Source: a candidate division WOR-1 bacterium RIFOXYB2_FULL_37_13 (GTDB lineage: Bacteria > Margulisbacteria > WOR-1 > XYC2-FULL-46-14 > XYC2-FULL-37-10). From it: a DNA stretch of 64,000 nt. Within the stretch, counting starts at the first letter, position 1. Each line of letters starts with the position of its first letter. The position numbers and the translations under genes were made by a program. The notes beneath the pieces are model-generated. The model was not told the origin of the DNA. It was given only the letters and a program-made list of their open reading frames with translations, and searched no databases. The stretch is from positions 842 through 64,841 of the forward strand of contig MEUB01000036.1 in assembly GCA_001771535.1 (NCBI GenBank). Direction: 5' to 3'. Below, one piece after another: positions 7,997-56,060 of this stretch.

Positions 7997-8017
7997 TCAA
8001 TCCCTCTTTTGCAATGT

Positions 8018-8092
8018 AGGACAACGGCTTGTCCGTTGCCGTTGCTGCCTATTTCTTCGCATTTGTAGCAAGGAATAAACCTTGCCCTACAT
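8018..8092. repeat. compound imperfect palindrome (ATGTAGGACAACGGCTTGTCCGTTGCCGTTG ... CCTTGCCCTACAT) in the femAB-vapBC intergenic region
   Basis: nested inverted repeats CAACGG/CCGTTG, GGACAA/TTGTCC and ATGTAGG/CCTACAT. Confidence 0.4.
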
Positions 8093-8320
8093 CTATCTAG
8101 AAATATATCTATTTAAAAAATATTTGAATTACAATTAAAGAAATTTGCACAACAATCAGGCTATCATCACATAATTCAATATAAGTGAAGAATCACAATA
8201 CTGTTAGTCCAATGACTATTCCCATACTGTTTTATAACTTTTTCAAGTTTTTGTTTAGAATCACAAGAAAAAACTTCCTCAAGATTTATCGGTTCATCAT
8301 CCTTATCTTTTGACATTTTA

Positions 8321-31227: not shown

Positions 31228-31985
31228 CATATCGTGACAGATCAATTACTTTCACCAAGACTAATCCAAGGAAAATTAATATCGGCGAAAGAAAACGCCC
31301 TGAACCTCAAGGCAAGCCAGGCTATATCCGCGTAGATACTGTGCATCAGGGCGATTCCGACAAACAAAAAGGGGTCTATTATATAAATACTGTCGACGAA
31401 GTTACCCAATGGCAGGCAATTGCCGCTGTAGAAAAAATATCTGAAACATATTTACTCGAGGCTCTCTTAGGCTTGCTCAATCAATTTCCATTTGAAATCA
31501 TTGAATTTCATAGCGACAATGGTTCAGAATACATCAACAGACAAGTCGCAGAACTTTTAAACAGACTTTTAATTAAACTTACGAAATCTCGAGCTAGACA
31601 CTGTAATGATAACGCTTTAGTAGAGTCAAAAAATGGGGCTGTAATTAGAAAATGGATGGGCTATGCTCATATTCCTCAGAAACATGCCCAAGACATCAAC
31701 AAATTCTTTAAAAAATATTTTAATTTATATTTAAACTACTACAGACCTTCTATTTTCCCTGAAATTGTATTTTCTGCAAAAAGAAAAGAGGTCAAAAAAT
31801 ACAGATATGAGAATACAATGACCCCTTTCGCAAAACTAAAATCCATTTTTGAATACAAAAAGTTCCTCAAAAAGAATACTTCCGTCGTTGACTTAGAATT
31901 GTTTTTAAGCAATGATAGTCCTAATGAGTTTGCTGAAAAGGTGGTGAAGGCTCAAGATTGTCTCTTTAATGGCATTTCTACCTAA
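31228..31985 (+). pseudogene. C-terminal (DDE catalytic core) part of the IS481-like transposase, downstream of the nested IS3
   Basis: HSDNGSEY and CNDNALVESKNGAVIRKWMGY motifs (rve family); same frame as 29485..30000 once the 1256-bp IS3 and its 3-bp duplication are removed. Confidence 0.6.
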
Positions 31986-36473: not shown

Positions 36474-38045
36474 TTAAACATGATAATCCTGCAACGCTTT
36501 CACACTAAAGCCTTTTTTCTTGAACGATTCAAGGCCGTTTACAGTCGCACGGGCTCCCGAGAGGGTCGTAACGATTGGGATCATGCGCATGATGACTTCT
36601 GACCTGATTTTTGATTCGTCTACTTTTGTCTTTTTGTCTCCGGGAGTGTTTATGACAAGCTTAATTTCGTTGTTTTTTATAAGATCCAAAATGTCGGGCC
36701 TGCCCTCCCCCAGTTTTTCAACAACTTCAACCTCCAAGCTGTTCTTTCGCAAAACATCGGCGGTTCCTGATGTTGAAACAATTTTGTAGCCCAAAGTATC
36801 TATCCGTTTTGCAAACCCCACTATCGAACGCTTGTGCTTATCATCAACAGAGATAAATATTTTCCCTTCCATTGGAAGCTTTTGCCCTGCCGCAATTTGA
36901 GCTTTCATATAAGCAAGCCCCAAATCAGGATCAATTCCCATAACCTCTCCGGTCGACTTCATTTCGGGACCAAGAACTGGATCAACCCCAGGAAAACGAC
37001 TAAATGGAAAAACAGCCTCTTTAACAGAAAAATAAGAAGGAATAACTTCTTTTTCAATGCCAAGCTCTTTTAAAGTTTTTCCGATCATAACTTTTGTAGC
37101 AATTTTTGCCCATGGGATCCCTGTCGCTTTGCTTACAAATGGAACAGTTCGAGAGGCTCTCGGATTTACCTCAAGAACATAGAGAATATCCCCTTTTACC
37201 GCATATTGTATGTTCATCAAGCCGACAACGTTTAATTCTTTAGCAAGAGCGTGTGTCGCTTTGCGGATTTTATCCAACATAGTTTTTGAAAGGGAAAAAG
37301 TGGGTAGTGCGCAAGCAGAATCGCCTGAATGGATTCCAGCTTCTTCTATATGCTCCATGACACCGCAAATCACAGTCTCTTTACCGTCTGATACGCTATC
37401 AACATCAACTTCTATTGCGTCTTCTACAAATTTATCGACTAATATAGGCCTTTCTGGAGAAGCTATCACCGCTTTATTCATGTATTCTTCAAGATCTGCG
37501 TCATCATAAACAATCATCATCGCCCGACCACCCAAAACATAAGAAGGCCTAACAATAATAGGGAATCCTATCTCTTCAGCCACTTTTTGAGCCTCAATAA
37601 AAGAGATAGCTGTCCCGTTTGGCGGCTGGGTAAGTTTTAATTTTTTAAGAAGGACTTGAAATAATTTTCGGTCTTCTGCCCTATCTATGGAATCTACAGA
37701 AGTTCCGAGAATAGGCACTCCCGCCTTGTCAAGCCGCCATGATAAGTTGAGCGGGGTTTGCCCTCCAAATTGGACAATAACGCCTGTGGGGTTTTCTTTT
37801 TGCACTACATGGAGAACGTCTTCATATGTTAAAGGCTCAAAATAAAGCCGGTCTGAAGTATCAAAATCGGTGGAAACCGTTTCGGGGTTTGAGTTTATCA
37901 TAATAGCTTCATACCCCTCTTCTTTTAAAGCAAAAGAAGCGTGGCAGCAACAGTAATCAAATTCAATCCCCTGCCCTATGCGATTGGGTCCTCCACCTAA
38001 AACGATAACCCTTTTTTGATTTTGCAGGGGGGAGTAATTGGACAT
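36474..38045 (-). CDS. carB: carbamoyl-phosphate synthase large subunit, C-terminal half only (split carB: second ATP-grasp plus MGS-like domain)
   Basis: starts KRVIVLGGGPNRIGQGIEFDYCCCHASFALKEEGYEAIMINSNPETVSTDFDTSDRLYFEPLT, which matches the beginning of the second half of CarB; no N-terminal half adjacent. Confidence 0.8.
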   Translation of the reverse strand: MSNYSPLQNQKRVIVLGGGPNRIGQGIEFDYCCCHASFALKEEGYEAIMINSNPETVSTDFDTSDRLYFEPLTYEDVLHVVQKENPTGVIVQFGGQTPLNLSWRLDKAGVPILGTSVDSIDRAEDRKLFQVLLKKLKLTQPPNGTAISFIEAQKVAEEIGFPIIVRPSYVLGGRAMMIVYDDADLEEYMNKAVIASPERPILVDKFVEDAIEVDVDSVSDGKETVICGVMEHIEEAGIHSGDSACALPTFSLSKTMLDKIRKATHALAKELNVVGLMNIQYAVKGDILYVLEVNPRASRTVPFVSKATGIPWAKIATKVMIGKTLKELGIEKEVIPSYFSVKEAVFPFSRFPGVDPVLGPEMKSTGEVMGIDPDLGLAYMKAQIAAGQKLPMEGKIFISVDDKHKRSIVGFAKRIDTLGYKIVSTSGTADVLRKNSLEVEVVEKLGEGRPDILDLIKNNEIKLVINTPGDKKTKVDESKIRSEVIMRMIPIVTTLSGARATVNGLESFKKKGFSVKALQDYHV

Positions 38046-38147: not shown

Positions 38148-38633
38148 ATGAAAAAATTTGTTATGCTGCTATCTATTTTTGTCGCTGGGGTTATTGTTTT
38201 GGGTTTACCGGTATCTGCCGCATGGAGAGGCACTGAAGGAAGAGAAGCTACGAGGCGAACCGTTGGGAAAGCTGCTGTAAAAGAATCTGGAAAAACAACA
38301 GAAGATATCAGAGGAAGATCAGGGAGAACTGAAGGAAGAAGAGCTGTTGGAAAAGCAGCTGTAAAACAGTCCGGGAAAACAACAGAAGATATCAGAGGCG
38401 TTGAAGGAAGACAGGAGACAAGAAGAACCACCAGTAAAGCGATTCTTAAAGAATCTGGAAAAACAACAGAAGATATCAGAGGAAGATCAGGGAGAACTGA
38501 AGGAAGAAGAGCTGTTGGAAAAGCAGCTGTAAAACAGTCAGGGAAAACAACAGAAGAGATAAGAGGGGTTGAAGGAAGACAAGAATTCAGACAAGAGGTA
38601 GGCAAAGACGTCTACGAAGAGACAAAAGAATAA
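38148..38633 (+). CDS. secreted basic tandem-repeat protein (about five 28-aa repeats ...GKAAVKxSGKTTEDIRG...)
   Basis: strong RBS AAGGAGGG, signal peptide MKKFVMLLSIFVAGVIVLGLPVSAAW, repeat-encoded body; the antisense ORF 38105..38605 is a shadow. Confidence 0.7.
   Translation: MKKFVMLLSIFVAGVIVLGLPVSAAWRGTEGREATRRTVGKAAVKESGKTTEDIRGRSGRTEGRRAVGKAAVKQSGKTTEDIRGVEGRQETRRTTSKAILKESGKTTEDIRGRSGRTEGRRAVGKAAVKQSGKTTEEIRGVEGRQEFRQEVGKDVYEETKE
38245..38600 (+). repeat. tandem DNA repeat, 84-bp unit in a 168-bp higher-order period, coding
   Basis: GAAGATATCAGAGGAAGATCAGGGAGAACTGAAGGAAGAAGAGCTGTTGG... recurs 168 bp apart (38301 and 38469). Confidence 0.8.
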
Positions 38634-40424: not shown

Positions 40425-41642
40425 ATGAAAATTTTATTTATCTCAAATTATTTGTATTTAGACGGTCCTCCGATAGCCCTTTTCCGAATAGTGCGAGAAC
40501 TTGCTAAAATAAGCGGCCTTGAAATAGCCGTATTATCTTACCTTGATGGTTCCATAAAGAAATGGTATGAAAATATAGGGATAAGCCCAATAATTGCGAA
40601 CTGTTATGAGCCGATAATAGAGAATATAAACTCGCTTGTAAAAACAATAAAAGAAGAAAAGCCTGATCTTGTCGTTTCAAATATGCTGGACACGATTAAC
40701 GGATGCTTTGCAGCAAACATTTGCAATCTCCCTTCTGTTTTATATGTTCATGAAGATTGGCCGGCAATTAATTTTTCCACTCTGCATCTGTTTGCATATA
40801 AATTGTCAGACCTAATAGTTTTTCCGTCAAAATACCAGCTGGACGTATACAAACCACTTCTTGACGGGGTAAAAACAAAAGTAATAACAAACGGAATTCC
40901 ATTATCTGAGTTCAGTGCAGCTTCAATAAAACAATCGAAAGAAGAGATAAAAAATAAATACAAACTCCCACTTGATAAAAAAATCGTTTCAACAATAGGG
41001 CTTGTATGCAACCGCAAACGGCAGGATCTTTTTATTTTTGCCGCGCATGAAATCTTAAAATTACGGGATGACATCATCTTTCTTATTGTTGGCAGATACC
41101 ATGAAGATGATAATTATTACAAACTATTAAAAAAATACGTGCAAACAGGGGGGCTGGAAAATAAAATCATATTTGCAGGCGAAAAAGAAGCTATAGGAGA
41201 AATTTACCATATATCCGATTTAATTGCCCACCCTACAAGCAATGATGTCTCCCCTCTTGCAATATCAGAAGCACTTGCTTTCAAAAAGCCTGTCATTGCA
41301 ACTTCGATAGATGGGATTCCTGAACTCATAGAAAACGGACAAAACGGGCTTTTAATTGAACAAAACAATTCCCAACAATTAAAAGAAGGCATCATAAAAA
41401 TTATCGACAATTATCTTTTTTTTCAAAATAATCTGGAAAGAACGCATAAAGAAATACAAAACATAACAACAGCTTCTTCCGATTTTTTTGATGTGATTAA
41501 AAATCTGAAATTCAAAAAGAAAGAGTTTGATGTCAAAATGCTGAAAGATGAAATAGAATTTACAGTTAAAAAAGGCTTTTCATTAAAATTCAAAGAGATT
41601 ACCCCGCTGATAGTCAGAAAACCGGCTTCAAAATTCAAATAA
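40425..41642 (+). CDS. glycosyltransferase family 4 (GT-B, RfaG-like)
   Basis: EALAFKKPVIATSIDGIPELIENGQNGLL matches the GT4 E-x7-E region. Confidence 0.75.
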   Translation: MKILFISNYLYLDGPPIALFRIVRELAKISGLEIAVLSYLDGSIKKWYENIGISPIIANCYEPIIENINSLVKTIKEEKPDLVVSNMLDTINGCFAANICNLPSVLYVHEDWPAINFSTLHLFAYKLSDLIVFPSKYQLDVYKPLLDGVKTKVITNGIPLSEFSAASIKQSKEEIKNKYKLPLDKKIVSTIGLVCNRKRQDLFIFAAHEILKLRDDIIFLIVGRYHEDDNYYKLLKKYVQTGGLENKIIFAGEKEAIGEIYHISDLIAHPTSNDVSPLAISEALAFKKPVIATSIDGIPELIENGQNGLLIEQNNSQQLKEGIIKIIDNYLFFQNNLERTHKEIQNITTASSDFFDVIKNLKFKKKEFDVKMLKDEIEFTVKKGFSLKFKEITPLIVRKPASKFK

Positions 41643-41654
41643 GCATACCCTGCT

Positions 41655-42758
41655 TTATTTTGAAAGCGCTTCAATTATCTTATCTATGCGATGCCCGCAT
41701 GTATGGCGCGAAAGGACTTTCTTTTGAGCGGCAGATGATATAGTTTGCCTTTCTTTATCGTGTTCCATATAAAAAGCTATCTTTTCTTTTAAATCCTGAG
41801 GTCCTGAAAAAGTAACAATCTCTTTTCCAATCTCAAATAAATCACCAAGATCAGGCCTTAAGTCATCAACCAATTGAAAAGCCCCCAAGCCTCCAAGGAT
41901 AAAAGTCCTGTCATTGGGTGATTTAGCCATAATTTTGTTATTATTGCGATCCATATTGTGGCTAAAGCTGTCACGATGTATATTAAGATTTATTTTTGAT
42001 GCCAATTGATACTTTACGCTTTCTTCATAAGGAACAAACTCTTCTTTTATAAAGCTTTTCAACGTTTCATAATTGCTTAAAGCCCCCTGCCAAGAATCAG
42101 AAAGAACATGCGACCCCAGAAGCTTAACTTTATAGTTTTTTAAAAAACCAGAAAGCTCATCAATTACTTTAACCCTGTAAGAATTTTTAAACGGTGTGCC
42201 GACAAAACAAATATCGCTTTCATAGCTTTTTTCTTTTTGAAAGTTCTCAAATTTTGAAGGAAACGCCAATGGCAAAAAGAAAACATTTTTACACCCATTT
42301 TCCTGATATATAGGAACTGCAGCAGAATCAACCGTAAAAATAAACTCACAAATAGGAGCCATCTCCACGCTCAAATCAGTCCAATATGGGTCGTCAATCT
42401 GCCACATAACCATTTTTCTGCCCAAATCTTTTATTATTTTCAAAACAACCCTGTTTAAATGATGCCCATTCATAAAAAATATAAAATTAGACTTTGAAGA
42501 ATATATCTTTTGAGGGATAAGGGCAGAAGCATATTCTCTTGCAATTTTTATTAACTGATTTAAAGGAGTATCCTTAAATGAGGATTGTAAAAGCTGCCTA
42601 AAAACCAGAGTCTGTTTTGCAAAATCAAAAACTTCAACTTTAATCCCTTTCTCCAAAAAGGCAGCATAAATTACTTCATCCCAAAACTTTTCAACAGGGG
42701 TAATGCCATGCTTTATATAAAAAATTTCCATTTGTGGAGATTCTATCATAAGAATCAA
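41655..42758 (-). CDS. CgeB-family (DUF3880-like) glycosyltransferase-like protein
   Basis: architecture and C-terminal GT-B-like region resemble the spore-maturation CgeB family; convergent with the GT4 gene. Confidence 0.5.
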   Translation of the reverse strand: MILMIESPQMEIFYIKHGITPVEKFWDEVIYAAFLEKGIKVEVFDFAKQTLVFRQLLQSSFKDTPLNQLIKIAREYASALIPQKIYSSKSNFIFFMNGHHLNRVVLKIIKDLGRKMVMWQIDDPYWTDLSVEMAPICEFIFTVDSAAVPIYQENGCKNVFFLPLAFPSKFENFQKEKSYESDICFVGTPFKNSYRVKVIDELSGFLKNYKVKLLGSHVLSDSWQGALSNYETLKSFIKEEFVPYEESVKYQLASKINLNIHRDSFSHNMDRNNNKIMAKSPNDRTFILGGLGAFQLVDDLRPDLGDLFEIGKEIVTFSGPQDLKEKIAFYMEHDKERQTISSAAQKKVLSRHTCGHRIDKIIEALSK

Positions 42759-43181
42759 TTAAACAACAACACCATTTCCTGATGTATCAGGATTAATCAA
42801 TTGACTGCGCATTTGTTTTGCCTTTGATGAAATATTTTCCAACGCGATTAACATTTTATCTATTTCTTTTTTAACAGCGGGATCCGACGAATCCTGTTTT
42901 ATTGTTCGAAGGACACAAATCGCATCTTCTAAATTATTTCCATCCTTAGAACCAGTTAAAAGAGCAACAGCATTTCTTATTTTTTTAGCAATTTCCTTTA
43001 ATTTTTGCTGATTTTCCAGTTTTGCTTCCCCTGTTTCTTTTAAAATCTGAGCCAAAATTTCGTGAAGATCGCGCAATATTTTATTTACCGCCTCGTTGGG
43101 GTCGTTTTTTTCAAAGGCAACCGCAATGTTATTAAGTGACGAAGGATTTATCATTTTACTCATCTCCCTTTGTAATCTCAA
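42759..43181 (-). CDS. hypothetical helical protein (140 aa)
   Basis: ORF, butts up to the upstream gene. Confidence 0.45.
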   Translation of the reverse strand: MRLQREMSKMINPSSLNNIAVAFEKNDPNEAVNKILRDLHEILAQILKETGEAKLENQQKLKEIAKKIRNAVALLTGSKDGNNLEDAICVLRTIKQDSSDPAVKKEIDKMLIALENISSKAKQMRSQLINPDTSGNGVVV

Positions 43182-43187
43182 ACATTA

Positions 43188-44807
43188 TTAAACCGCTTCT
43201 CTTATGTCCTGTGGTCCTCCCGGAATCTGAGAATCAAGATGCGATTCGACTTTCAAGCGTTTCATTAGTTTTAAAATTAAAGACAATCTCTTTTCCAAGT
43301 TTGGATTTTGTGCCCCTTTCACCCTATATTCCAAAGACAAAAACTCATCTTTTGCCGCGTCAAATACTTTAATATTGGCAGAGTCGCGCAAACTATTGAA
43401 TTCTGTTTCATCTATTTCCCAACCCAAACGTTTAAGGTTGCTTAAAATACCTTTAATTTTCTGTTCAACCAGCTTAAATGCCGGCCCGGCCAATTCGTAA
43501 AGAGTTCCTCTTTCTTCCAGCGCGGACGAAAGCATGTCAACCAATCTGAGCCTTGCGGCGGCTATCCCCTCTTTTTCTATATCTTTAAATTCATCGCTTG
43601 AAACACCAAGCTTAATTAATCCGTTCTTTAATTTTGTAACTTTAAAATAGGTCGAAAGAACAGTTGCCATATCTCCGGAAATAGCGCGATGCATGTAAAT
43701 GGCCCGTAATCTGTTTATAAAAAGATCTTTTTCGTCTTCTTTTGAAAACTCATAGGGATTCTTTTTGTTTTTTGACTGTGATCCTAAATCCATATCCCCG
43801 GTTCCTAATGGGATATTGGGCGCAAACATACCGATATCAAATTTCTTTACCTGCCAGTCCTGAGAAAATTCGTTTAAATTAACTCCTACCTTTGTAGCAA
43901 GCTTAAGAAGTTCTTTTAATTCATTTGTAATTTTCTTGTCTGTTTCGGCATCGGCAGCCAAATGTTTGCCAATTAACTTTTCTGCCATCTTCTCTTTGGT
44001 GAAATCTTTAAGGTCAGAAAGCATCTCTTTCTTAATTTCGTCCGCGACCCCTTGCAAAGATTCATTGTCATGCAAGCCGGAAAGCAAGGCAGAATCCAAT
44101 ACAGTGTTTAAAGTTTTGTCTCTGATTATAAGGCCAACACTCTTTTCTTTTGTCAATATCTTTTTAAAAAAAGCGTCCTTTATCTGTTCTCTGACATCCT
44201 GGCGCATGGAATTTTTTACAGTTGTTCTTATGGAAATAAGGTCTTTATTGGTAAATCCTTTTTCGCTGAGCAATTTCTCCAAAGTTTCAAGCTTCTTCTT
44301 AATATCCTGTGAATCATTTACGGCGTATTGGGAATAAAGGGCGGCATATTCTTTGACTGCTTCCTGTGTCTTTGCATCAACTGTAATTTTTAATGCCTGG
44401 TCCTGTCCTTTTTGTCCCTTGCCTCCCTGCTGTTTCTTTTGCTCCCCTGCCTTGCCGACAACATTATTTAATTCTACAAAATCATCAAACTTTTCATCTC
44501 CACGGAACAACTGGCTAAGTTCGTCCTCAAGCTCTCCTTTTGTCTTATCAGATAAACGGTCAGGCTTAAGAGAAACACCGGCTGTTGCCAGTTTTGTAGC
44601 CAATCCGGCCAAGATGTCGAGTCCGGCCTTGCTTGCCGTAACCCCGCTTTGAAGGAGTTTGTCGACATCTGATTTCGCCTCAACTTTTCGAGTTGGAAAA
44701 TCAGATGCCGTTTTTTTATCTATCTGTTTAAGTTCAACAGACAAACTATTGCTCAACGCGACAGCCATTTGCTGCGAAGACGCGTTATCTACAATGTTAA
44801 CTCCCAT
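43188..44807 (-). CDS. hypothetical protein (539 aa, K/E-rich helical)
   Basis: ORF only. Confidence 0.5.
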   Translation of the reverse strand: MGVNIVDNASSQQMAVALSNSLSVELKQIDKKTASDFPTRKVEAKSDVDKLLQSGVTASKAGLDILAGLATKLATAGVSLKPDRLSDKTKGELEDELSQLFRGDEKFDDFVELNNVVGKAGEQKKQQGGKGQKGQDQALKITVDAKTQEAVKEYAALYSQYAVNDSQDIKKKLETLEKLLSEKGFTNKDLISIRTTVKNSMRQDVREQIKDAFFKKILTKEKSVGLIIRDKTLNTVLDSALLSGLHDNESLQGVADEIKKEMLSDLKDFTKEKMAEKLIGKHLAADAETDKKITNELKELLKLATKVGVNLNEFSQDWQVKKFDIGMFAPNIPLGTGDMDLGSQSKNKKNPYEFSKEDEKDLFINRLRAIYMHRAISGDMATVLSTYFKVTKLKNGLIKLGVSSDEFKDIEKEGIAAARLRLVDMLSSALEERGTLYELAGPAFKLVEQKIKGILSNLKRLGWEIDETEFNSLRDSANIKVFDAAKDEFLSLEYRVKGAQNPNLEKRLSLILKLMKRLKVESHLDSQIPGGPQDIREAV

Positions 44808-44819
44808 CTTATTTTCACC

Positions 44820-44996
44820 CTATCCTTTTTTCTTGCCTTCCTCTCCCCAAATGATTTTATTGACCGAGTTTGATTTTAGTTTTTCTGTAAGCCTTGCCAT
44901 CACCACGTTTGACCACTGATTCTGCTGGGCTTTGGAAAGTTTTTCATCAGTAGGTTTCACAGAATCCGAAAGTTTAGGATTATAAGTGCTCGCCAT
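44820..44996 (-). CDS. small hypothetical protein (58 aa from MASTYNP...)
   Basis: AAGGAGG RBS 9 nt upstream of the ATG at 44994-44996; fills an otherwise empty gap. Confidence 0.4.
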   Translation of the reverse strand: MASTYNPKLSDSVKPTDEKLSKAQQNQWSNVVMARLTEKLKSNSVNKIIWGEEGKKKG

Positions 44997-46086
44997 TTGA
45001 ATCAACCTCCTTTTTTAATTGTTCAATCCTAGCCTTTAATTTTGGATCAGGATAAAAATCGTAAGCAATTGTAAATTCCCTCAATGCGTCTTGTTTTTTT
45101 TGACCCATTAAATATGCGCTACCAAGATAAAAATGCGGAAAATAAGTATAATCTTTGATATTAAAACCGTTTAAAGCATTTTTGGGCGGGGATAATTTAC
45201 TTGCGTGCTCAAAAACATGGATAGCATCTTTGGTCTGTTTTGTGAACAGGTAAATAACACCCATCATGTTATAAGCCTCGGCATTAAACGGCTCCAACGC
45301 GATAACTTCTTTTAAGGTTTCAAAAGCTTGCGCGTATTTGCTCTGTTCCATAAGCATCTTTGACATCCTCATCCTTGAGACAACCGAGATAGGATCTTTG
45401 GGCGCAATTGAGACAACCGTAGAATATTCAGAAAACGCGGTTGTCTTGTCTCCAACGTCAAAATAGTTATTTGCCAAAAGGAAGTGGCAATGAAAATCAT
45501 TTTGGTCTTTTTGCAAAGCCTCTTTTAGTATCCGGAAATTTCTCTCCTTCTTTTCCTTTGCCTTCTCCTCACCCAAATCCTTCCCCCAATGAAAAACTTT
45601 AATATCTTGCAAAAATTCCCCTTTGAGCAATTCTCCCGAGGCAGCATAAACCTGCTCATTAAAAGAACGCCCAAAATGAATTCCTTTATTATTTTTAAAA
45701 ACTTTCAGCCTTGAATAAAATCTGGAGCCTTCCTCTGTTCCGAATTGAGCCTGATATATAGGCAAATAATATGCCTCTTTGTCACTCTTCTCTAAAATCT
45801 GGCGAAGCGTATCAAGCGTTTTCTCATTTATAAACTCATCAGCGTCTACCCATATAATCCAATCACCCAAAGCGTGTTTGAGCGATTCATTTCTAGCCGC
45901 CGAAAAATCATCGATCCAAGAAAAAGTATGAATTTTCGCCCCCAGTTTTTTGGCGATTTCAATTGTATTGTCCGTTGATCCGGTATCAACCAAAACAATT
46001 TCATCAACTTTTTTTGCAAGAAGAGGCAAAGTTTTTTCAAGAACTTTTTCTTCGTTTTTTACTATCATACAAACTGAGAGTTTCAT
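44980..46086 (-). CDS. glycosyltransferase family 2 with C-terminal TPR repeats
   Basis: CMIVKNEE..DEIVLVDTGSTDNT..VDADE (GT2 DxD) then TPR-like helices. Confidence 0.7.
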   Translation of the reverse strand: MKLSVCMIVKNEEKVLEKTLPLLAKKVDEIVLVDTGSTDNTIEIAKKLGAKIHTFSWIDDFSAARNESLKHALGDWIIWVDADEFINEKTLDTLRQILEKSDKEAYYLPIYQAQFGTEEGSRFYSRLKVFKNNKGIHFGRSFNEQVYAASGELLKGEFLQDIKVFHWGKDLGEEKAKEKKERNFRILKEALQKDQNDFHCHFLLANNYFDVGDKTTAFSEYSTVVSIAPKDPISVVSRMRMSKMLMEQSKYAQAFETLKEVIALEPFNAEAYNMMGVIYLFTKQTKDAIHVFEHASKLSPPKNALNGFNIKDYTYFPHFYLGSAYLMGQKKQDALREFTIAYDFYPDPKLKARIEQLKKEVDSNGEHL

Positions 46087-46476
46087 TTAATTTTCTCCTA
46101 CAGAAACCGATATTCTACTCTTAGTCAAAAATTTTTCTATTTTCTCCTTTTCTTCATTCTGAGTCTTAAAAACTTTCCCAAAATATTTCTTGTACATATC
46201 AAGCAGCCTTTCAGCCCGCTTTATATATATTTCAAGTTTTTCAAGTTTTATCAAAACTTCTTTTTTATCTGTCCCCAATACTTGCATCTCATATTCAATA
46301 TTTGACCTTTCAGAATAAAAAGATAAAAGATGATTCTTTAACGCGTCATATTCCATCTCTTTTATTTTTATCGGATTATAATCATCTTTCACTCCCAGCT
46401 TGTCGGCTTGGATCAAAAGCTGATTTTCAAGCTCTTGAAAAACTCTCATTTGAGCTTTTATTTTTTTACTGCTCAT
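46087..46476 (-). CDS. hypothetical helical protein (129 aa), chaperone-like size
   Basis: ORF butts up to the downstream GT2 gene; 4-bp overlap with the upstream ORF. Confidence 0.45.
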   Translation of the reverse strand: MSSKKIKAQMRVFQELENQLLIQADKLGVKDDYNPIKIKEMEYDALKNHLLSFYSERSNIEYEMQVLGTDKKEVLIKLEKLEIYIKRAERLLDMYKKYFGKVFKTQNEEKEKIEKFLTKSRISVSVGEN

Positions 46477-47024
46477 ACAATTTTTGCCCCCGTAACAATC
46501 CCAAACAATGCCTTTTCACTTGCGACCTGTGCCAGGCCATTTTTAACAGCAATATTTTTTTCTTCTCTTGCTTTTGACATTAATTTTTCTATTTCAGCAG
46601 GGCTTATGCCAAGCAATCCCATTTGAAAAGTAATTACCCCAACCCCCATTTTAGAAAGTTCGGCCACAAAAAAATTATGGCTGAAAGTATCCATTGCAAG
46701 CTTAACCATCTTATTTTTAAGAACCTGCAAAGTTTTATCCCTGAATCTCAAATTATTATTTTTTGATAACGATTCAACTTCATCTTCTGCCAAAGCCGAA
46801 GATGCGGCGGCAAGATAGACGGTATCCTGCATTCCGACTTTATAAGTTTTGCTTCCATCTTTTCCCTCAACTGTTTCCCACACTAAAGAGGACATTTGTT
46901 GTGTCCCTTCGTTCTGTTTTTCTTTGGGAACTTCTTCTTTTAATTTTTGGTATGCGGCTTTTTGCGCCGAGAACATTTTGTCCTGGCTTAAATTAGCCGC
47001 AATTGTTGGCGCTTCATATGCCAT
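46473..47024 (-). CDS. hypothetical protein (183 aa)
   Basis: ORF only. Confidence 0.45.
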   Translation of the reverse strand: MAYEAPTIAANLSQDKMFSAQKAAYQKLKEEVPKEKQNEGTQQMSSLVWETVEGKDGSKTYKVGMQDTVYLAAASSALAEDEVESLSKNNNLRFRDKTLQVLKNKMVKLAMDTFSHNFFVAELSKMGVGVITFQMGLLGISPAEIEKLMSKAREEKNIAVKNGLAQVASEKALFGIVTGAKIV

Positions 47025-47108
47025 AAATTATACCTTCCCCTATGTATAAATCGTATTAAATAGGGAAAAACTTGCATTTAAACTAAGAAATAAAAAGAGG
47101 ATTAACCT

Positions 47109-49388
47109 TTACTTGTTTTTCTTTTTCTGGCCGCCCTTACGTTCTTCCATCCGTTTTCGCTGCACTTTAGAACTTGACTCCTTATTTCCCATTTTTTGTA
47201 ATTCTTCTCTTCGTTTTTGGGCTTTGGCCGCGGATTGAGCAATTCCGGCCCTGATCTCGGCATCCTTTTTTTGTTCTTGACCTTTATCAATGGCTTCCTG
47301 ATATCTCAACTCCATTTTTCTCTCATGGTAGGCTGCCATATCTTTTTTATAATCCAGGCGGTCTCTCCTATTGCGGACATTGTTAGCAATTGTTCTGCCG
47401 ACATCCTTGTCACCAAATCTTAAAAGCCCCATAACATCGTAAACCGCCCAGTTATTCATATTAACAGCTTCATTGCCATTTTCATCATAAGCAATTCCTG
47501 ACCTATTTCCTGAAAGATTTATTCCCATAAGCTGTGAAGGAAAATATTTTGGATGAGGCCCTCCGGAATCACTGGCTATTTTATTGTTGTTTGGGCCATC
47601 TTTAATCGTTGACGATGTTTCACTATCAGGATTCCAGATACTGCCTTTAGCGCTGTAAAAATCCCACCCCGCACGTTTTCCCAGTTCGTTGTCATCATTT
47701 TTCGTTCTTATGTAAGGCTGAGAATCATAAACACTACCATAACTATCGGTATTAGGGTTTGGATTGTCTATTCCAAAATATTCATACATCAGATTTTGAA
47801 CGTCACCTTGATATTCATCTATTCCGTAATAATCGTCATCATCTACTCCTTGATAATTTTCATCTTTCGCAAGCGACCCAAGATAATTTTTATATGTTTG
47901 CGTATTATTATATAGCCAGTCGTTAAATCTTATAAACGCCAGCTGATCTTTACCCGAAAAGAGCCATCCCGGAAGTCCTCCGCTTTTATCGGTCGGCTTA
48001 AAAAGAAATTCCGAGGGATTAAATCCATACGCGGGAAAAACTGATCTGAAAGAATGCTGCATAGAAATAAAAAGGTTAAGAAAAGCAAGATTATGCGAAT
48101 CTGCCATAAGCCCTCGCATAGGATCAGAACGCCATTTATCAAAAGAGCCGCGCAACGCGGCATCATCTGGAGTTGCTGTTACTGTTACCGTCCCATCGCT
48201 ATTGGTAACATATGTCAAACGGCCTATATCGCTATTGCTCCCAAAGATCTCTGTCATGGCGCTATAAATTCTACGGCGTGATTCGAGCATTCCAAGCATC
48301 AGCTTAAATGCCCCTTCCCCATGATCTCCAGCTTGCAGGTCATAATCAAATAGGCCGCTATTAAAAGAATCGCGTCCTGTGGTAAATGTTTCGCCATCTC
48401 CGCTTTTCCAGTTATTATTGTTATTCCAGTCACTGTCTCCCTTCCATCTTATGTTTTCCCCATCGGTAACCCCATCGCTCCCTGCCTCAATTTTTGCCCC
48501 TTTTTTAAATCCCGACATTATAATTTCATAGTAACTTTCGTCTCCATAATCTTCAAGATTTTTTAAAATACCGTCAGATAATGCTTTAATCGGAGTTCCT
48601 TTTTTTTCTTTATCTTCTTTATTGTAAAAATTGAGCCCTTCATCCCAAATATCAGAATAGGTTTCTGGATTAAAAATTCCCAGTGATAATGGGTTTAAAA
48701 AATGAAATAAATTATCGTAATTTATAGGGCCATTAAGAGATGAGCCCTGATACGTCTCAATAAGATCATGAGCTTTTTTTTCAATTCCATAATGTTTCTT
48801 GTCATTTTGATTAACATCGAAGTGGTTGAATTGGGATACTGACGGATGAAAATCTAGGTTTTCCGCCCTACTCCCTTCAAAAAATCCCCAAGGCAACCCA
48901 TCCCCCTGAGTTCTTGGAACTCTATGCCATGAGCCAAAGTTATCTCTTGTATATCCACGCCCTGCATCGCTATCCCAGACATCGTTAAAACGGGTATGCA
49001 CAGGATTTCCATCTTCATCCAACAGATAATACGGATTTTTATCGTCAGTCCCGTTCCATTGCGGAATATCCTCAGGATCTCCTTCCCATAAAGTCGGAAG
49101 TGGATCGTTGCCCTCCCAAAATGAAGAGCCTTCCGCATATCCGAATTCCGTCAAAGCATCGTAAAACTCTTCTGATGATTCTCCCGCGTAACCTACCTGT
49201 TCAAATCTTGGCAGAAATTTCATCATCTCCATAAGAAAATTAACGCGGCTGCCCAGCCATTGGAAAGAAGAGGGAGTTTCAACCCCATCATGGAGATAAA
49301 ATCTGGAATAATCAGGATTGTCTACTTTCAACGGCTTACGAGGTTTTGGCAGTGTCTCACTATTTCCAAAGGAGTTCATAAAAAACAT
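47109..49388 (-). CDS. hypothetical large protein (759 aa), D/N/G/W/Y-rich with a K/R/E/Q-rich C-terminal tail
   Basis: ORF only; no signal peptide obvious. Confidence 0.5.
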   Translation of the reverse strand: MFFMNSFGNSETLPKPRKPLKVDNPDYSRFYLHDGVETPSSFQWLGSRVNFLMEMMKFLPRFEQVGYAGESSEEFYDALTEFGYAEGSSFWEGNDPLPTLWEGDPEDIPQWNGTDDKNPYYLLDEDGNPVHTRFNDVWDSDAGRGYTRDNFGSWHRVPRTQGDGLPWGFFEGSRAENLDFHPSVSQFNHFDVNQNDKKHYGIEKKAHDLIETYQGSSLNGPINYDNLFHFLNPLSLGIFNPETYSDIWDEGLNFYNKEDKEKKGTPIKALSDGILKNLEDYGDESYYEIIMSGFKKGAKIEAGSDGVTDGENIRWKGDSDWNNNNNWKSGDGETFTTGRDSFNSGLFDYDLQAGDHGEGAFKLMLGMLESRRRIYSAMTEIFGSNSDIGRLTYVTNSDGTVTVTATPDDAALRGSFDKWRSDPMRGLMADSHNLAFLNLFISMQHSFRSVFPAYGFNPSEFLFKPTDKSGGLPGWLFSGKDQLAFIRFNDWLYNNTQTYKNYLGSLAKDENYQGVDDDDYYGIDEYQGDVQNLMYEYFGIDNPNPNTDSYGSVYDSQPYIRTKNDDNELGKRAGWDFYSAKGSIWNPDSETSSTIKDGPNNNKIASDSGGPHPKYFPSQLMGINLSGNRSGIAYDENGNEAVNMNNWAVYDVMGLLRFGDKDVGRTIANNVRNRRDRLDYKKDMAAYHERKMELRYQEAIDKGQEQKKDAEIRAGIAQSAAKAQKRREELQKMGNKESSSKVQRKRMEERKGGQKKKNK

Positions 49389-49411
49389 AATCTGCCTTCC
49401 TCCTGATTTTT

Positions 49412-49735
49412 CTACATTGAACTTAAGCGATCTTCAAGTTTGCGCACATTATTCCAAATATCCAAAATCGCGGATTGCGCCTGATCTATTTTTGCCATGC
49501 GATCTTCAAGCAGCAATGATGTTGAAGAAGAATTTACATTTGCTCCGTTTACATAATTATTTCCTATTTTCAAAGTTTTAGTAGGATCCGGATTCACTGA
49601 TAATTCCGCGTAATTTTTTATAAGATCAGCCATTTCAGTATAAAAACTTTTAACAGTTTTTATAACGTCCACATCAGGTGAATGATTGATCTCCCCTCCC
49701 AACGGTGAAAAAAATTTAACATTAAAAAATGCCAT
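49412..49735 (-). CDS. hypothetical small helical protein (107 aa)
   Basis: ORF only. Confidence 0.4.
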   Translation of the reverse strand: MAFFNVKFFSPLGGEINHSPDVDVIKTVKSFYTEMADLIKNYAELSVNPDPTKTLKIGNNYVNGANVNSSSTSLLLEDRMAKIDQAQSAILDIWNNVRKLEDRLSSM

Positions 49736-49760
49736 TTTTTTATTCCTCCTTTTATATCCT

Positions 49761-49817
49761 CTTCTAAAAAATCAATTATCTGTTTTTTTAGAAGAGCCCC
49801 CCGGCAAGCCGGGGGGC
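49761..49817 (-). other. tandem stem-loops between two small genes of the locus: an AT-rich hairpin (CTTCTAAAAAA/TTTTTTAGAAG) then a perfect GC hairpin (GCCCCCCG-GCAAGC-CGGGGGGC)
   Basis: inverted repeats read directly; the GC stem is exceptional in this AT-rich sequence; no U-tract follows on either strand. Confidence 0.5.
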
Positions 49818-49836
49818 TAGAAAAAAGTTTATAATA

Positions 49837-50145
49837 TTAGCTTCTAACAATTTGACGGGTCCTTTCCGCCATTTGATTCTTCTTGGATACAGCGCTTGCA
49901 GCTGTCTGCTCAATTGTCGATAGTTTACTAAGATAACTATCTAAAACAAGAGCCCCTCCACCACTTGATACGTCTATGTCTGTCCCTCCAACATTCACAT
50001 TTATTGTTGTGTCTTCAATCGTATCATTCTCCCCATCAACTGCAATAGCACTTTTGATATCTTCCATCAGTTGATCTATGCTATTATCACAAGAACTTGC
50101 CACATCATAAGCATTCTGTTCAATCGTATTAGGAGTATCTGCCAT
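49837..50145 (-). CDS. hypothetical small acidic protein (102 aa)
   Basis: ORF only. Confidence 0.4.
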   Translation of the reverse strand: MADTPNTIEQNAYDVASSCDNSIDQLMEDIKSAIAVDGENDTIEDTTINVNVGGTDIDVSSGGGALVLDSYLSKLSTIEQTAASAVSKKNQMAERTRQIVRS

Positions 50146-50186
50146 ATATTCTCACCTCCTTTTACACACATATAGTCTTAAACCGT

Positions 50187-50444
50187 CTACACCAATGTAT
50201 TAACATTAAAGCCCCGCATACCAAGTTTATCTGCTATCGCGTGAAATCTGTTAACTGAGATATGTCCTTCCTGTACAAGGTTTTGCATAATTTCAAACTT
50301 ACCAGCCTTGCTGGTAGAAGAATCTTTGGCCAGATAGGAGGAAAGATCGGAAGTCACGCTTGAATTGGAATAAGTAGACCCGCCGGATTCTTCCATATCC
50401 ATCTGCGGCATAGTTACTGTTGAATTTGAAGCTGGGTTTATCAT
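50187..50444 (-). CDS. small protein with a FlgM-like (anti-sigma-28-like) C-terminal helix; identification is tentative
   Basis: C-terminus KFEIMQNLVQEGHISVNRFHAIADKL resembles the FlgM C-terminal consensus (..I..L...I..G.Y.V....IA.K.) as recalled from Bacillus FlgM; disordered S/T-rich N-terminus, as in FlgM. Confidence 0.35.
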   Translation of the reverse strand: MINPASNSTVTMPQMDMEESGGSTYSNSSVTSDLSSYLAKDSSTSKAGKFEIMQNLVQEGHISVNRFHAIADKLGMRGFNVNTLV

Positions 50445-50491
50445 TGCATTACATATATCGTAGCGGGGTAAAAAAAACTTGCATGAAAAAA

Positions 50492-50785
50492 TTATTTGTA
50501 GGATTTATCATTTAAAATATTTTTTATTTTTGAAAGGCGCTTAAAAATATTTTTAAGACACTCTTCTTCTTCGTCTATTTTCGGCTCTTTTTCCCAATCA
50601 GCCTTTAATCTAGCCTTGCTCATGTCTGACGCGTAAATTTCGTTGCCGCGAACAACTTTATCGGCGCGCAAAATAAATCCGCGCAGACTTTGCAGAAAAT
50701 TTTGTCCGTTTATTTCCTGCGGCTGGCTTTGTTTTGTTTTTATATCATTTAAATTAAGTGCTGCGTTTATTTTATTTACTTCCAT
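50492..50785 (-). CDS. hypothetical small protein (97 aa)
   Basis: ORF only; 1-bp overlap with the giant upstream gene. Confidence 0.4.
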   Translation of the reverse strand: MEVNKINAALNLNDIKTKQSQPQEINGQNFLQSLRGFILRADKVVRGNEIYASDMSKARLKADWEKEPKIDEEEECLKNIFKRLSKIKNILNDKSYK

Positions 50786-53700
50786 TATACTAGCCCTCCT
50801 CCGATTGTAGGCCTGTTTTTCTGCTCTAAAGATGAAAGAGCCGCCATTTCTCCTGTTTGCGCTAAATAGAGCTCATAAGGATTCTGCCTTCTTCTGTTGT
50901 TGTCCTGGCCTTTAGATGGAGATGGCGCTGAGTTTACAGATATCCCAGCATCTTGTGAGCCGCTTAAATCAACAGGGATTACTATTTTGTCTTTGTCATC
51001 ATCCCTCGCAACTTTAAGATGAATATCCCTTTGTTTGACAGAGTCCTTGATATAATCAGCCGAGCTTTTGGAGGTATCCCAAATATTGTTTAATATATCA
51101 TCATTTTGTTGAGAGGTAATCTCGCGAGCCTCCATTTCAAGATCAATAGCGCCGGATGTGAGCGCGCTTGCGAGAGAATTGCTTTCTGACTTATTAACTC
51201 CCGCGGCCCATCCCTTTTGGTTTGAGCCTGAAGTTTCTGATCTGATTTCAGATAAATAGGCCTCTCTTCTTTCTATCCTCTCTTCTCTTGCCTCTTTAAC
51301 ACTCTTGCGCTTTCCACCGCTTGCGAACCCTGAATCATAAATAATACCAGCCAGTAAAACCGCTATATTCTCCGTTAACCCTCCTATAAACTGGTATAGT
51401 CCTAAGTCCTCGTACTGCTTAATATGTTCATTATACGCAAACATTTTTTTATCATTTTCGGACTTAATGTTTTCTATATCAGCATTAATTTTTCTATACT
51501 CATTAGCAAGTTTTTTATATGAAGACTCATCCCCTCTCGAATAAGCCTCATCCGCGAATTTCCTTTTTTCTTCCGCCAAAATTTTCTTGTCTCGCGCGAC
51601 TTTTTCAGCTGTTTTCATGTTTTCTATATTCTCCCGATAGTCCTCTCTAAGCGCCGCTGTTTTATATACAAAAACCAGATTAACCAAAGAGATTGACGCG
51701 GCAATCAAGCTCTGTACCATTGCCCGCTTTGCAAAATTCATCTGGTTATGGCGCTCAACAATTGTCAAGACATTCTGATAAAGGGTACCTATATTTGCCA
51801 TAGCAGAAGCCTGTTCCGATGAAAAAGCGTCTGTCGCGTTTCCAACTCGCCCTCCCGCACCAGATAAAGTAGCGTGAATTGAGGCTCTCATTTCTGCCTT
51901 TGCTTCCTGCAATTTTGCCAACACGTCACGAATATTAAAAATCCTCTCCATTTTATGACGAAATAATTCTACTACTCCGCTATTTACACCCCATCTGCCC
52001 GCCCCCAAATCTTCTATAATATCCATTGACATATCTTTGTATAATTCCATTTCCATCAATTCAAGATCATCAAGTGTCGAATCTCCAGAATGTTCTTCTT
52101 TTAATCTTTCGGCAATTTTTTCAGGGTCGTATTTTTCTATTTCACGCCCTCGCCTGCTGCGGATTGAATTGATGATAAAATCATAACCGGCATTAGCAAT
52201 CCCCATCATAGGAGAAATAAAGGCAAAAGCTATTTGCGAGTAATTTATCCCAACACCGGCGCAAGCGGTAAGAATCGCAATATCAATTCCCAGTTTAAAT
52301 GAAGCATCAATTATATTTTTTCTTGAATCTAAGGCTCTCTTTTGAGTTTCAATTCTTTCTCCCAAGAACTGCACTAAATTATCAAAAACTTTCAGCTTCC
52401 CTTCAAATTCAGCTCTGTTAACATCGTGAGAAAGCTTCCCTTCTCTTCTTCCGGAAACGCCTGTCATTTCGAGATGGACAAGATTTCTCATTTCTGTTCT
52501 TGCTTCATTTAGAGTCGCCAAAATATTTTGGATGTTGGCAAGGCGGGTTAAAATATCTCTAAGCTTGGCAACATATCCTCCATTTAAACCCCAATATCCG
52601 TCACCAATATCTTTATTTATCCCGTTGGTAAATAACTCTTCATAAACTCGCGCTTCAAGGCTTGCCATACGGGCTTGCGTTGAATTCGGGTTATTTTTTC
52701 TAAGGGTTCTTAGATAGGCGGGAACGCCATCATCCCCATAACTTGAGCCAAAAGAGCCCATCGTCAATTCATATAACAGACTGGAAGTAAATCCGCCTAA
52801 AGCGCCACCGACCCCCCAGCCTATATAAAAAAGTCTTGTTGAAAGACTTGCCGTAGCTTCTGTAGCAGCCCTTGTCCCAGCTTCCAAACCTTCTTCAGCA
52901 AGTTTGCCGCCTTTATCTAAAAGTTTCCCTAATAACCCTCCAAAGGCAGCGCAGACCCCTTGAATAACAAGCGAAAGAGCAAAACTGTTTACGGCGCCTG
53001 CCATTTTTTTATCTTTTGCAATCGCCATATTTTCGGCGTTTTTATATTCATTTAACATAAAAGTCAAAGTATCAAATTTAAACTGAGCTAAGCGCGCATC
53101 AGATTCAACCGCGGCATCAACATAGGCAGAAGATTCCCTACCTCCAACTCCTGTCATTTCCATATGAACCAGATTTCGCATGGAATTTTTTTCTTTACTT
53201 AAGGCAACAATAACTCTTCTTATATTTTGAATTTTTACCAATTGGGTTTGCAGTCTTGCTATCTCCTCAAAGTCTATTTTCTTGAATTCTTCGGATGCCC
53301 TATCTGTAAACCAGTTGCCGGGGTTTGCATTAGACTGTGTCCACCACGATCTAACCCTGCCTTCATCGCTATCCTCATCCTGAATCATACTCTCATCATT
53401 TTGAACAATAATGCCATCTTCCATATTGGAAGTACTATTCATAATATCAAGCATGTCGTTTCCTGTATCTGTATCAGCTTGATCTCCCGTATCGTATGAA
53501 GGAATATCCGGCACATATCCCTCTGTCATAGAATTTGCGACAATTGCGCCTGCCAGTTTTACTCCCGCAGCCAATACGCCAAGTATCAAGCCCGCAACAG
53601 GAACAAAAAATCCGACTACTATCGCAGCTACAGAAAGAAAATTCGAAATAACATTAAAAACCCGCTGTACTTTGGCTTTTTCTATTTCTCCTTCCAGATA

Positions 53701-55356: not shown

Positions 55357-55439
55357 TGATCATTATATCGAAACAAAAAGGGGAAAACTTGTATGGTTTT
55401 TATTGATTTACAGGGGAAAACAAAACCTGTTTTAATTAG

Positions 55440-55658
55440 TTATTTTTGCAGGTTTTTCAACTGTTCCTGCAAGGTTTTTTTCGCATTTTCAAGCTCTTTG
55501 TTGACGGAGGCAATTTTATTGTCAAGTTTTTTGATATCTTCTTCGGCTTTTTTCTTTATGAGTGTATAGCGTATAATTTGAAAAGTATTATATATTATAA
55601 AGGCGACTCCCACCCCGACAAAAAATGTCACCCAATTTATAGTTGTTAAAAATTCCAT
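55440..55658 (-). CDS. small bitopic membrane protein with a coiled-coil tail (72 aa)
   Basis: N-terminal TM (WVTFFVGVGVAFIIY) then KKLDNKIASVNKELENAKK heptads. Confidence 0.45.
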   Translation of the reverse strand: MEFLTTINWVTFFVGVGVAFIIYNTFQIIRYTLIKKKAEEDIKKLDNKIASVNKELENAKKTLQEQLKNLQK

Positions 55659-55680
55659 TTTGTTCTCCTATTTTACTCCA

Positions 55681-56037
55681 TCACACATTACTGTCAACTA
55701 CGGGATTATCCGCCGTAGGATTGCCGGCCATAGGGATAGAAAGGTCGCCGGATTCTTTTTCTTCTCTTTCAACTTTAACACGTGATTCATGCGCGCCAAA
55801 TAAAAATTCCGCCACAAGATCAAGAAGGCTTTTAGTCGCGGTCGCATGCATTTTAAATTCCAAGGTATCTATTTCTGCTCCTTCAGGAGTATACCTGTTA
55901 GTCACAGAAGTTTGTAACGGCTCATCAACAAGTTTCCGTTTAGCAGCCTTAATTTCACCGGCAAGGTCAGGCTCATATTTAATTGCTTTACTATTTCCAC
56001 TCTTCGGATTCATTGATATCGGCGATGTATAAGCCAT
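55681..56037 (-). CDS. hypothetical protein (118 aa)
   Basis: ORF only. Confidence 0.4.
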   Translation of the reverse strand: MAYTSPISMNPKSGNSKAIKYEPDLAGEIKAAKRKLVDEPLQTSVTNRYTPEGAEIDTLEFKMHATATKSLLDLVAEFLFGAHESRVKVEREEKESGDLSIPMAGNPTADNPVVDSNV

Positions 56038-56060
56038 TTCCCTTCACGCTCCTTTTTTCC

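Follow-up and report, generated by a model that had tools for sequence, protein, structure and literature searches.

A GmaR-type glycosyltransferase in a conserved orphan operon of Saganbacteria and Margulisbacteria, a putative cytoplasmic protein O-glycosyltransferase

The 64,000-nt stretch of contig MEUB01000036.1 analysed here (positions 842 to 64,841; hereafter the window) belongs to a genome of Saganbacteria (WOR-1) that was assembled from metagenomes of the Rifle aquifer; by exact sequence matching, its proteins are those of RIFOXYB2_FULL_37_13 and of near-identical assemblies from that aquifer. The window carries an orphan operon of about 17 genes, one of which encodes a family 2 glycosyltransferase (GT) joined to tetratricopeptide repeats (TPR), here called GT2-TPR. 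Enzymes of this GmaR type are known as flagellin modifiers, and GT2-TPR is a minimal, previously undescribed variant recruited to a non-flagellar orphan operon. We propose, with a probability of roughly 0.55, that GT2-TPR O-glycosylates one or more proteins of the operon in the cytoplasm, and that in some lineages the glycan is further modified by two other enzymes of the locus, GT4 and a CgeB-like GT.

According to this proposal GT2-TPR, a predicted soluble enzyme fixed in the operon, would dock one or more operon-encoded proteins through its TPR repeats, while the GT-A domain, whose DxD motif is intact, would move a sugar from a nucleotide sugar onto Ser/Thr residues of the client prior to its assembly or its exit from the cytoplasm. 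If GmaR is a guide, the sugar would be an N-acetylhexosamine such as N-acetylglucosamine (GlcNAc) supplied as UDP-GlcNAc. The CgeB-like GT and GT4 would probably extend or vary the glycan in some lineages, as the GT4/GT2 enzymes may do beside GmaR-like genes in flagellin islands of Firmicutes. We infer that the acceptor is a locus protein, and likewise its identity, the sugar and the sharing of that glycan by GT4 and the CgeB-like enzyme. If true, this would widen the range of clients for cytoplasmic O-glycosylation in bacteria. GT2-TPR is the only gene of the cluster with an interpretable biochemical activity, which makes it an experimental handle on an opaque, phylum-spanning cluster; identification of the modified protein would reveal the main structural product of the cluster and whether it is a surface structure.

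The GT2-TPR enzyme and its relatives

The preliminary description of this stretch had reported three different GT genes embedded in or abutting a locus of unknown function. All three were found at the positions it gave, and their Pfam scores exceed the curated cut-offs by far; GT2-TPR and the CgeB-like gene lie inside the array of orphan genes, and GT4 converges on its end:

40425-41642, plus strand: GT4 glycosyltransferase, 405 aa (Pfam Glycos_transf_1 and Glyco_transf_4)
41655-42749, minus strand: CgeB-like glycosyltransferase, 364 aa, last gene of the array (Pfam Glyco_trans_1_2 and DUF3880)
44980-46086, minus strand: GT2-TPR glycosyltransferase, 368 aa (Pfam Glycos_transf_2 and TPR families)

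GT2-TPR matches Glycos_transf_2 over residues 4-130 (82.5 bits, Pfam cut-off 23.3) and TPR_2, TPR_19, TPR_8 and other TPR families over about residues 174-350, the GT-A domain (about residues 1-195) being directly followed by the repeats. Its best match in the PDB is the GT domain of GmaR (22ao_A; phmmer E 7.3e-34, 36% identity over 191 aa, query residues 3-195 aligned with chain residues 11-203); after GmaR and some designed TPR proteins come SunS/ThuS (PDB 7msk, 7msn and 7msp, E ~1e-16). Among NCBIfam models, that of the SunS family, TIGR04195, fits best (E 1.6e-22, 79.9 bits against a cut-off of 350). On these sequence affinities, membership of GT2-TPR in a family of protein/peptide glycosyltransferases is supported. 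The motifs DTGS.D, F..ARN, DADE (the DxD motif) and H(W/Y/F)G vary little or not at all among 18 orthologues and GmaR, the first three being strictly invariant, while the overall identity among the 18 orthologues is 35-56%. The retention of the motifs at such identities argues for a working enzyme under selection on catalysis, thus for a catalytically competent GT2-TPR.

GmaR of Listeria monocytogenes (637 residues) is bifunctional, being a flagellin O-GlcNAc transferase and an antirepressor of MogR: the N-terminal ~180 residues transfer GlcNAc to flagellin, the TPR was proposed to serve substrate recognition and the C-terminal domains antagonise MogR (PMC9638930). GT2-TPR resembles it in having (i) an N-terminal GT-A/GT2 domain with the shared DTGS.D, ARN, DADE and H(Y/W)G motifs; (ii) TPR directly after this domain; and (iii) the character of a soluble, cytoplasmic protein, hydrophobic segments being absent from all three GTs of the window. 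Unlike GmaR, it ends after the TPRs at residue 368, without the C-terminal linker and antirepressor domains, its TPRs are generic and its gene has no flagellar neighbours. The best ~100 homologues of GT2-TPR are about 350 aa long and form a distinct subfamily of Saganbacteria/Margulisbacteria; where the organism is given, it is a member of Saganbacteria or Margulisbacteria and, in one case, Omnitrophota. In FlmG of Caulobacter and O-GlcNAc transferase (OGT)-type enzymes, a TPR module likewise brings an intact protein to a fused cytoplasmic GT (PMC7591256, PMC9638930); however, their TPR is N-terminal and their catalytic fold unrelated (GT-B or GT41), the likeness being one of analogy, not homology.

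SunS and ThuS share with GT2-TPR a homologous GT-A domain followed by a helical C-terminal region, rank second to GmaR among its enzyme relatives in the PDB and define, as peptide S-glycosyltransferases, its best NCBIfam model. Together with the several small open reading frames (ORFs) around the GT, this would fit a SunS-like glycocin synthase acting on a small peptide of the operon (57-107 aa) to yield a secreted glycopeptide bacteriocin. However, 80 bits falls well short of the family cut-off, and the small proteins have 0-1 Cys, which makes S-linkage and nested disulfides impossible and leaves the locus without a Cys-containing precursor. Neither a C39-peptidase ABC transporter nor a thiol-disulfide oxidoreductase was found by Pfam in the window or among 81 orthologues of operon proteins from nine loci (hereafter the 81 locus proteins), and, unlike variable bacteriocin precursors, the small proteins are encoded by chromosomal genes conserved in two phyla. 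With too few cysteines and the transporter missing, the glycocin reading is barely credible; it was rejected as largely refuted.

Conservation of GT2-TPR in the operon

Saganbacteria and Margulisbacteria are uncultured phyla, siblings of the Cyanobacteria. Operon loci (given L numbers below) were retrieved independently via the 759-aa protein of the operon, the family of K129, a 129-aa conserved coiled-coil protein, and homologues of the GT; 25 distinct loci were left after dereplication, 24 of which are assessable for the position of GT2-TPR. In 22 of the 24, from Saganbacteria, Margulisbacteria and other metagenome-assembled genomes (MAGs), GT2-TPR lies directly 3' of K129, and wherever the sequence continues it is followed by the gene of N539, a 539-aa orphan. 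The K129 family scan, run on one genome per GTDB species, gave 14 loci, and those with an organism assignment are all from Saganbacteria/WOR-1 or Margulisiibacteriota. Only seven word-seeded homologues of the 759-aa protein were obtained, the two labelled with an organism being from WOR-1 (Saganbacteria) MAGs; their contigs share one gene order, with GT2-TPR between the 129-aa and ~540-aa genes. Four further contexts sampled from GT homologues all carry the operon (4/4), including one Margulisiibacteriota genome, and the three metagenome matches with at least 37% full-length identity to GT2-TPR all lie between K129 on the upstream and N539 on the downstream side. The pairwise identities of GT2-TPR are correlated with those of N539 (r = 0.86; Mantel test, 0/2000 permutations). 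The fixed slot, the co-divergence and the reciprocal scan establish GT2-TPR as a core, co-inherited gene of the operon. For this GT, the independent distribution that the preliminary description had regarded as contradicting glycosylated locus products was therefore not found.

The gene order of the operon is kept across both phyla (window 41655-57230; L006, L008, L009, L011 and L014-L035) and consists of a giant membrane protein, four to five small proteins, proteins of ~600-770, 150-190 and 129 aa, the GT, and proteins of ~540 and ~130 aa. In the literature on Saganbacteria/Margulisbacteria with glycosyltransferase, flagella or motility, no published description of this cluster was found.

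Two variants have no GT. In L018 (10001-12011) a 126-aa K129-type gene directly overlaps a 546-aa gene, while the distant L031 (8928-11782; GCA_023249195) has a fused 183/129-like 274-aa protein, a 79-aa protein and a 593-aa relative of N539, and is also without the giant gene. That two lineages dispense with the gene would agree with a GT2-TPR that is mainly a non-catalytic TPR scaffold, chaperone or regulator, as would the general role of TPR domains in protein binding and the moonlighting of the bifunctional GmaR (PMC9638930). The GmaR linker and antirepressor are, however, absent from the 368-aa protein (637 aa in GmaR), and the nucleotide-sugar-binding and DxD motifs are invariant in the 18 divergent orthologues, which makes a scaffold very unlikely.

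Flagellar relatives and the accessory glycosyltransferases

A flagellin, FliD or FliS gene is present within 3 kb of at least 25 of 76 metagenome relatives of GT2-TPR outside the operon (26-42% identity), the count being a lower bound because it comes from a single Bacillales query set; a 77th match, L072, carries a distant N539 relative and was left out of the 76. In the Bacillales locus L032, a 638-aa relative stands in the order flagellin (six genes), GT2-TPR, GT4, GT2, FlaG, FliD, FliS and FliT. These neighbours suggest that the usual job of the family is the cytoplasmic glycosylation of exported proteins that have no signal peptide. The association of GT2-TPR with extra GT4/GT2 enzymes in flagellin islands is the enzyme combination also seen in the window, and in such islands, too, the GTs are flanked by Cys-poor proteins devoid of signal peptides and by small helical proteins. 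In contrast to the flagellin islands of Firmicutes and others, the neighbours in the window are 14 orphans without flagellin, FliD, FliS or FlaG signatures, among them a 1523-aa multi-pass membrane protein, and the GTs of Saganbacteria/Margulisbacteria make up their own ~350-aa subfamily.

Flagellin GTs normally adjoin their flagellins. GT2-TPR may nevertheless be an ordinary flagellin GT, with its acceptor flagellin encoded elsewhere or with the operon as an unrecognised flagellum-associated module, in which case its position would be no sign of glycosylated orphan proteins. For this speak the flagellin GT GmaR as the closest characterised relative, the flagellar filament genes that adjoin the metagenome and Bacillales relatives, and the operon proteins, which like flagellar export substrates are Cys-poor and have no signal peptides; furthermore, Margulisbacteria are listed among the phyla with flagellins and FlgV (PMC7018530, PMC11607428). 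However, no flagellin, FliD, FliS or other flagellar Pfam family was detected among the 81 locus proteins, the gene tables examined show no flagellar gene flanking the loci, none was seen among the window ORFs scanned, and GT2-TPR is translationally coupled to K129 and N539 in the 22 of 24 lineages and co-diverges with N539. We consider a flagellin acceptor distinctly unlikely.

The other two GTs are lineage-variable accessories. GT4 (Glycos_transf_1, 111 bits, Pfam cut-off 26.4; Glyco_transf_4, 30.6 bits, cut-off 28.5) has generic GT4s as its best PDB relatives (E ~1e-12). Its nearest NCBIfam models, those of teichuronic-acid, exopolysaccharide, bacillithiol and LPS (lipopolysaccharide) enzymes, all score below cut-off, and no equivalog assignment (e.g. 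the SdgA/B protein O-GT, TuaC or BshA) was obtained, the scores being 5-15 fold under the cut-offs. GT4 converges on the array end with 12 bp between the stop codons and forms its own transcription unit. Orthologues with ~50% identity, convergent at the distal end of the operon, are confined to the window and its four closest lineages (L006, L008, L009 and L011), that is, to five of about 19 loci; a second GT4 is present in L008 and L011, and two additional plain GT2 genes in L009. The CgeB-like protein (Glyco_trans_1_2, PF13524, 94.5 bits, cut-off 25; DUF3880, PF12996, 45.4 bits, cut-off 25.2) bears the UniRef name Spore protein YkvP/CgeB glycosyl transferase-like domain-containing protein. 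It has no sequence relative in the PDB, and its best NCBIfam model, WaaS/CpsH, is below cut-off. Its ORF spans 41655-42758 (minus strand), the database protein starting at the ATG at 42749, and the gene is co-directional with the 131-aa gene, 9 bp 3' of it. It was found only in the window, L006 (at another position), L016, L022, L027 and L033, about six of 19 loci, near the distal end of the operon where present. The three GTs, which the preliminary description had treated as one set, are therefore not equivalent: GT2-TPR is a core gene while the other two are patchy.

In a preliminary assay CgeB of Bacillus subtilis appeared to glycosylate the crust protein CgeA (PMC13577073). For the CgeB-like GT this is a family-level analogy: the likeness is confined to the Pfam-level match of the 364-aa protein to Glyco_trans_1_2 and DUF3880, whereas the window and related loci have neither a cgeA-like nor a sporulation gene and the organism does not form spores. 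The earlier view that GT2-TPR and CgeB-family enzymes typically act on proteins thus holds for GT2-TPR, through its affinity for GmaR and SunS/ThuS; to the CgeB-like GT and GT4 no protein acceptor could be assigned.

GT4 and the CgeB-like enzyme are also the chief candidates for the reading that the GTs build a polysaccharide, a glycolipid or an LPS-core glycan and are mere neighbours of the orphans. Their best NCBIfam models point in this direction, although these matches are far below the cut-offs. The organism has LPS export genes (LptF/G, elsewhere in the window), GT4 is convergent, both GTs are patchily distributed and L016 has sugar-nucleotide genes ~5 kb away. However, an initiating transferase, flippase, polymerase or exporter was not found in or near the operon in any locus examined, the initiation, flipping, polymerisation and export families Wzx, Wzy, WbaP and ABC-exporter being absent from the 81 locus proteins. 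The GT4 orthologues keep their spot in five lineages at an identity equal to that of core genes, and the CgeB-like gene directly trails the 131-aa gene on the same strand. For GT2-TPR this reading is contradicted by the GmaR/SunS affinity: no assignment of this GT to a polysaccharide pathway, which the preliminary description had taken as an argument against glycosylated locus products, was found. Altogether, a polysaccharide role is unlikely.

HisF-like (His_biosynth), HisH-like (GATase) and ROK-family genes recur just 3' of the operon, apart from other his genes, in L008 (19448-21668), L009 (19880-22037), L014 (16378-18568), L015 (14819-17426) and L033 (14567-16751). HisF/HisH-like pairs make acetamidino sugars in some glycan clusters; the set is not in the window and may be ordinary hisF and hisH.

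The orphan proteins as candidate acceptors

Seventeen genes, GT2-TPR and the CgeB-like gene among them, are read in one direction as an array on the minus strand (57230 to 41655), in which no gap exceeds 101 bp and several neighbouring genes overlap or abut. The products follow in the order 389, 118, 72, 1523, 97, 85, 102, 107, 759, 183 and 129 aa, GT2-TPR, 58, 539 and 131 aa, and the CgeB-like GT. The K129 stop abuts the GT2-TPR start, and the K129 start overlaps the stop of the 183-aa gene by 4 bp. Promoter and terminator scans of the locus performed no better than shuffled controls and were uninformative, so that the operon structure was deduced from gene spacing alone. The 14 non-GT genes are the following:

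42759-43154, minus strand: 131-aa orphan protein; orthologues in L006, L008 and L011, no family above cut-off
43188-44807, minus strand: N539, 539-aa all-helical orphan directly 3' of GT2-TPR (alignments of orthologues)
44820-44996, minus strand: 58-aa basic protein, overlaps the 3' end of GT2-TPR; called in L001-L005
46087-46476, minus strand: K129, 129-aa conserved coiled-coil protein (family alignments; no Pfam or PDB match)
46473-47024, minus strand: J183, 183-aa orphan (family alignment; no PDB match)
47109-49388, minus strand: 759-aa orphan, W/Y/G/N/D-rich, with a basic helical C-terminal tail; seven homologues
49412-49735, minus strand: 107-aa small orphan (ORF call)
49837-50145, minus strand: 102-aa small orphan (ORF call)
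50187-50444, minus strand: 85-aa small orphan with a Ser/Thr (S/T)-rich N-terminus (ORF call)
50492-50785, minus strand: 97-aa small orphan (ORF call)
50785-55356, minus strand: 1523-aa giant membrane protein, N-terminal region acidic and S/T-rich (sequence features)
55440-55658, minus strand: 72-aa protein with an N-terminal hydrophobic segment, operon-proximal
55681-56037, minus strand: 118-aa protein, operon-proximal
56061-57230, minus strand: 389-aa protein with an S/T-rich N-terminus, operon-proximal

Neither these 14 orphans nor the 81 orthologues match a family at cut-off in Pfam, NCBIfam, PHROGs or PADLOC, and sequence and profile searches of the orphans against the PDB gave nothing credible. 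In view of the missing family matches, prophage, defence-system, flagellar, pilus, gas-vesicle and polysaccharide readings of the orphans were dropped. The K129 family has a mean column identity of 63-73% (two alignments). A HMMER profile search for N539 recovered 261 relatives among 1.84 billion representatives; the only organism assignment among ten looked up is to Margulisbacteria, and nine of unusual length that were scanned have no Pfam domain. The AlphaFold2 model of N539 (11-sequence alignment) is all alpha and of low confidence (mean pLDDT, the predicted local distance difference test, of 60), with no Foldseek match at E < 0.04; that of the 759-aa protein (seven sequences; mean pLDDT 40) is unusable. 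N539 is a candidate partner or acceptor of GT2-TPR. The 58-aa protein is kept in at least five lineages (63% mean column identity) with the invariant pattern QQ..W...A...K..S.N...W.

The giant protein has four repeats (residues ~470-1200), each ending in NLVHxEMTGVGGRE, and hydrophobic, putatively transmembrane segments, partly Gly-rich, after repeats 1, 2 and 4, a pattern conserved in its orthologues. It has no Pfam, PHROG or PDB match, and no known family with NLVHxEMTGVGGRE was found. Instead of a single giant, L009 (1-8857) and L033 (1-5861) have tandem giants of 1734+ and 1549 aa and of 1791+ and 1476 aa, respectively, with a ~95-aa gene in between, and in L011 alone (7887-8252) a 121-aa 23S_rRNA_IVP gene (PF05635) is inserted among the small operon genes.

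The unknowns had been described at first as secreted- or membrane-protein-like. N-terminal signal peptides were not detected among the locus proteins, and hydrophobic segments are confined, among the orphans, to the giant and the 72-aa proteins; on the other hand, the 14 non-GT proteins are depleted of Cys (7 of 4292 residues, 0.16%, compared with 0.98% in 27 other window ORFs; six-fold, binomial P = 3e-11), while the GTs contain 0.88%. The depletion fits proteins that leave the cytoplasm, whether to act outside it or because they are exported unfolded. In being Cys-poor and free of signal peptides, the orphans are like the flagellar substrates of GmaR-type enzymes. A tentative extension of the proposal, which we regard as doubtful, is that the operon encodes a hitherto unrecognised, Sec-independent surface or envelope structure with the giant protein as membrane anchor and Cys-free subunits, which would be O-glycosylated in the cytoplasm by an enzyme descended from flagellin GTs, the accessory GTs diversifying the glycan between lineages. 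Such a structure would give the GmaR-type GT family its first client system other than flagella.

The S/T-rich tracts put forward earlier as glycosylation targets exist in the window: the S/T content of the richest 30-aa segment is 73% in the 1523-aa protein (at residue 82), 53% in the 389-aa protein (at residue 36) and 47% in the 85-aa protein (at residue 16). As an argument they are weak. The N-terminal tract of the giant is strong in the window and in L022 and L030; L008, L011 and L016 have a modest one and many other orthologues none, and the 85-aa family is the only one to keep an S/T-rich N-terminus (five of six close lineages). No consistent pattern links S/T-richness with GT content across the loci. 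The substrate of GmaR itself is not a low-complexity tract, hence the tracts neither support nor undermine the model much.

The glycosylation of locus products, the central suggestion of the preliminary description, is favoured by the affinity of GT2-TPR, the fixed synteny and the lack of polysaccharide genes, and is retained here as a proposal. Several points weigh against it: (i) glycosylation was not observed, and the case rests on homology and gene context; (ii) the TPR part of GT2-TPR matches consensus TPRs only, not that of GmaR specifically; (iii) L018 and L031 keep K129/N539 genes without a GT, which implies that the GT is not indispensable; (iv) nothing specific links GT4 or the CgeB-like GT to protein substrates here, and GT4 is transcribed separately; (v) the S/T tracts are poorly conserved and an acceptor motif is not definable; (vi) structure prediction of two candidate clients (N539 and the 759-aa protein) failed or was uninformative; and (vii) some Margulisbacteria have canonical flagellins, by which a flagellin acceptor encoded elsewhere is possible (PMC7018530, PMC11607428).

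Other features of the window lie outside the operon. Two transposase/integrase-core (rve) ORFs, one complete with a helix-turn-helix and one a fragment (30002-30862, minus strand; 31341-31985, plus strand), indicate insertion-sequence activity ~10 kb from the operon. A 161-aa ORF (38148-38633, plus strand) combines a hydrophobic N-terminus with 3.6 copies of an 84-bp (28-aa) tandem repeat, GKAAVK(E/Q)SGKTTEDIRG... (38262-38566), and is overlapped by an equally long antisense ORF. Further large ORFs of 1067, 406 and 684 aa have no Pfam match (13240-16443, minus strand; 22680-25951, plus strand). A 523-aa ORF like the large subunit of carbamoyl-phosphate synthase (36474-38045, minus strand) contains one ATP-grasp half and the MGS domain only, which suggests a split or shortened carB.

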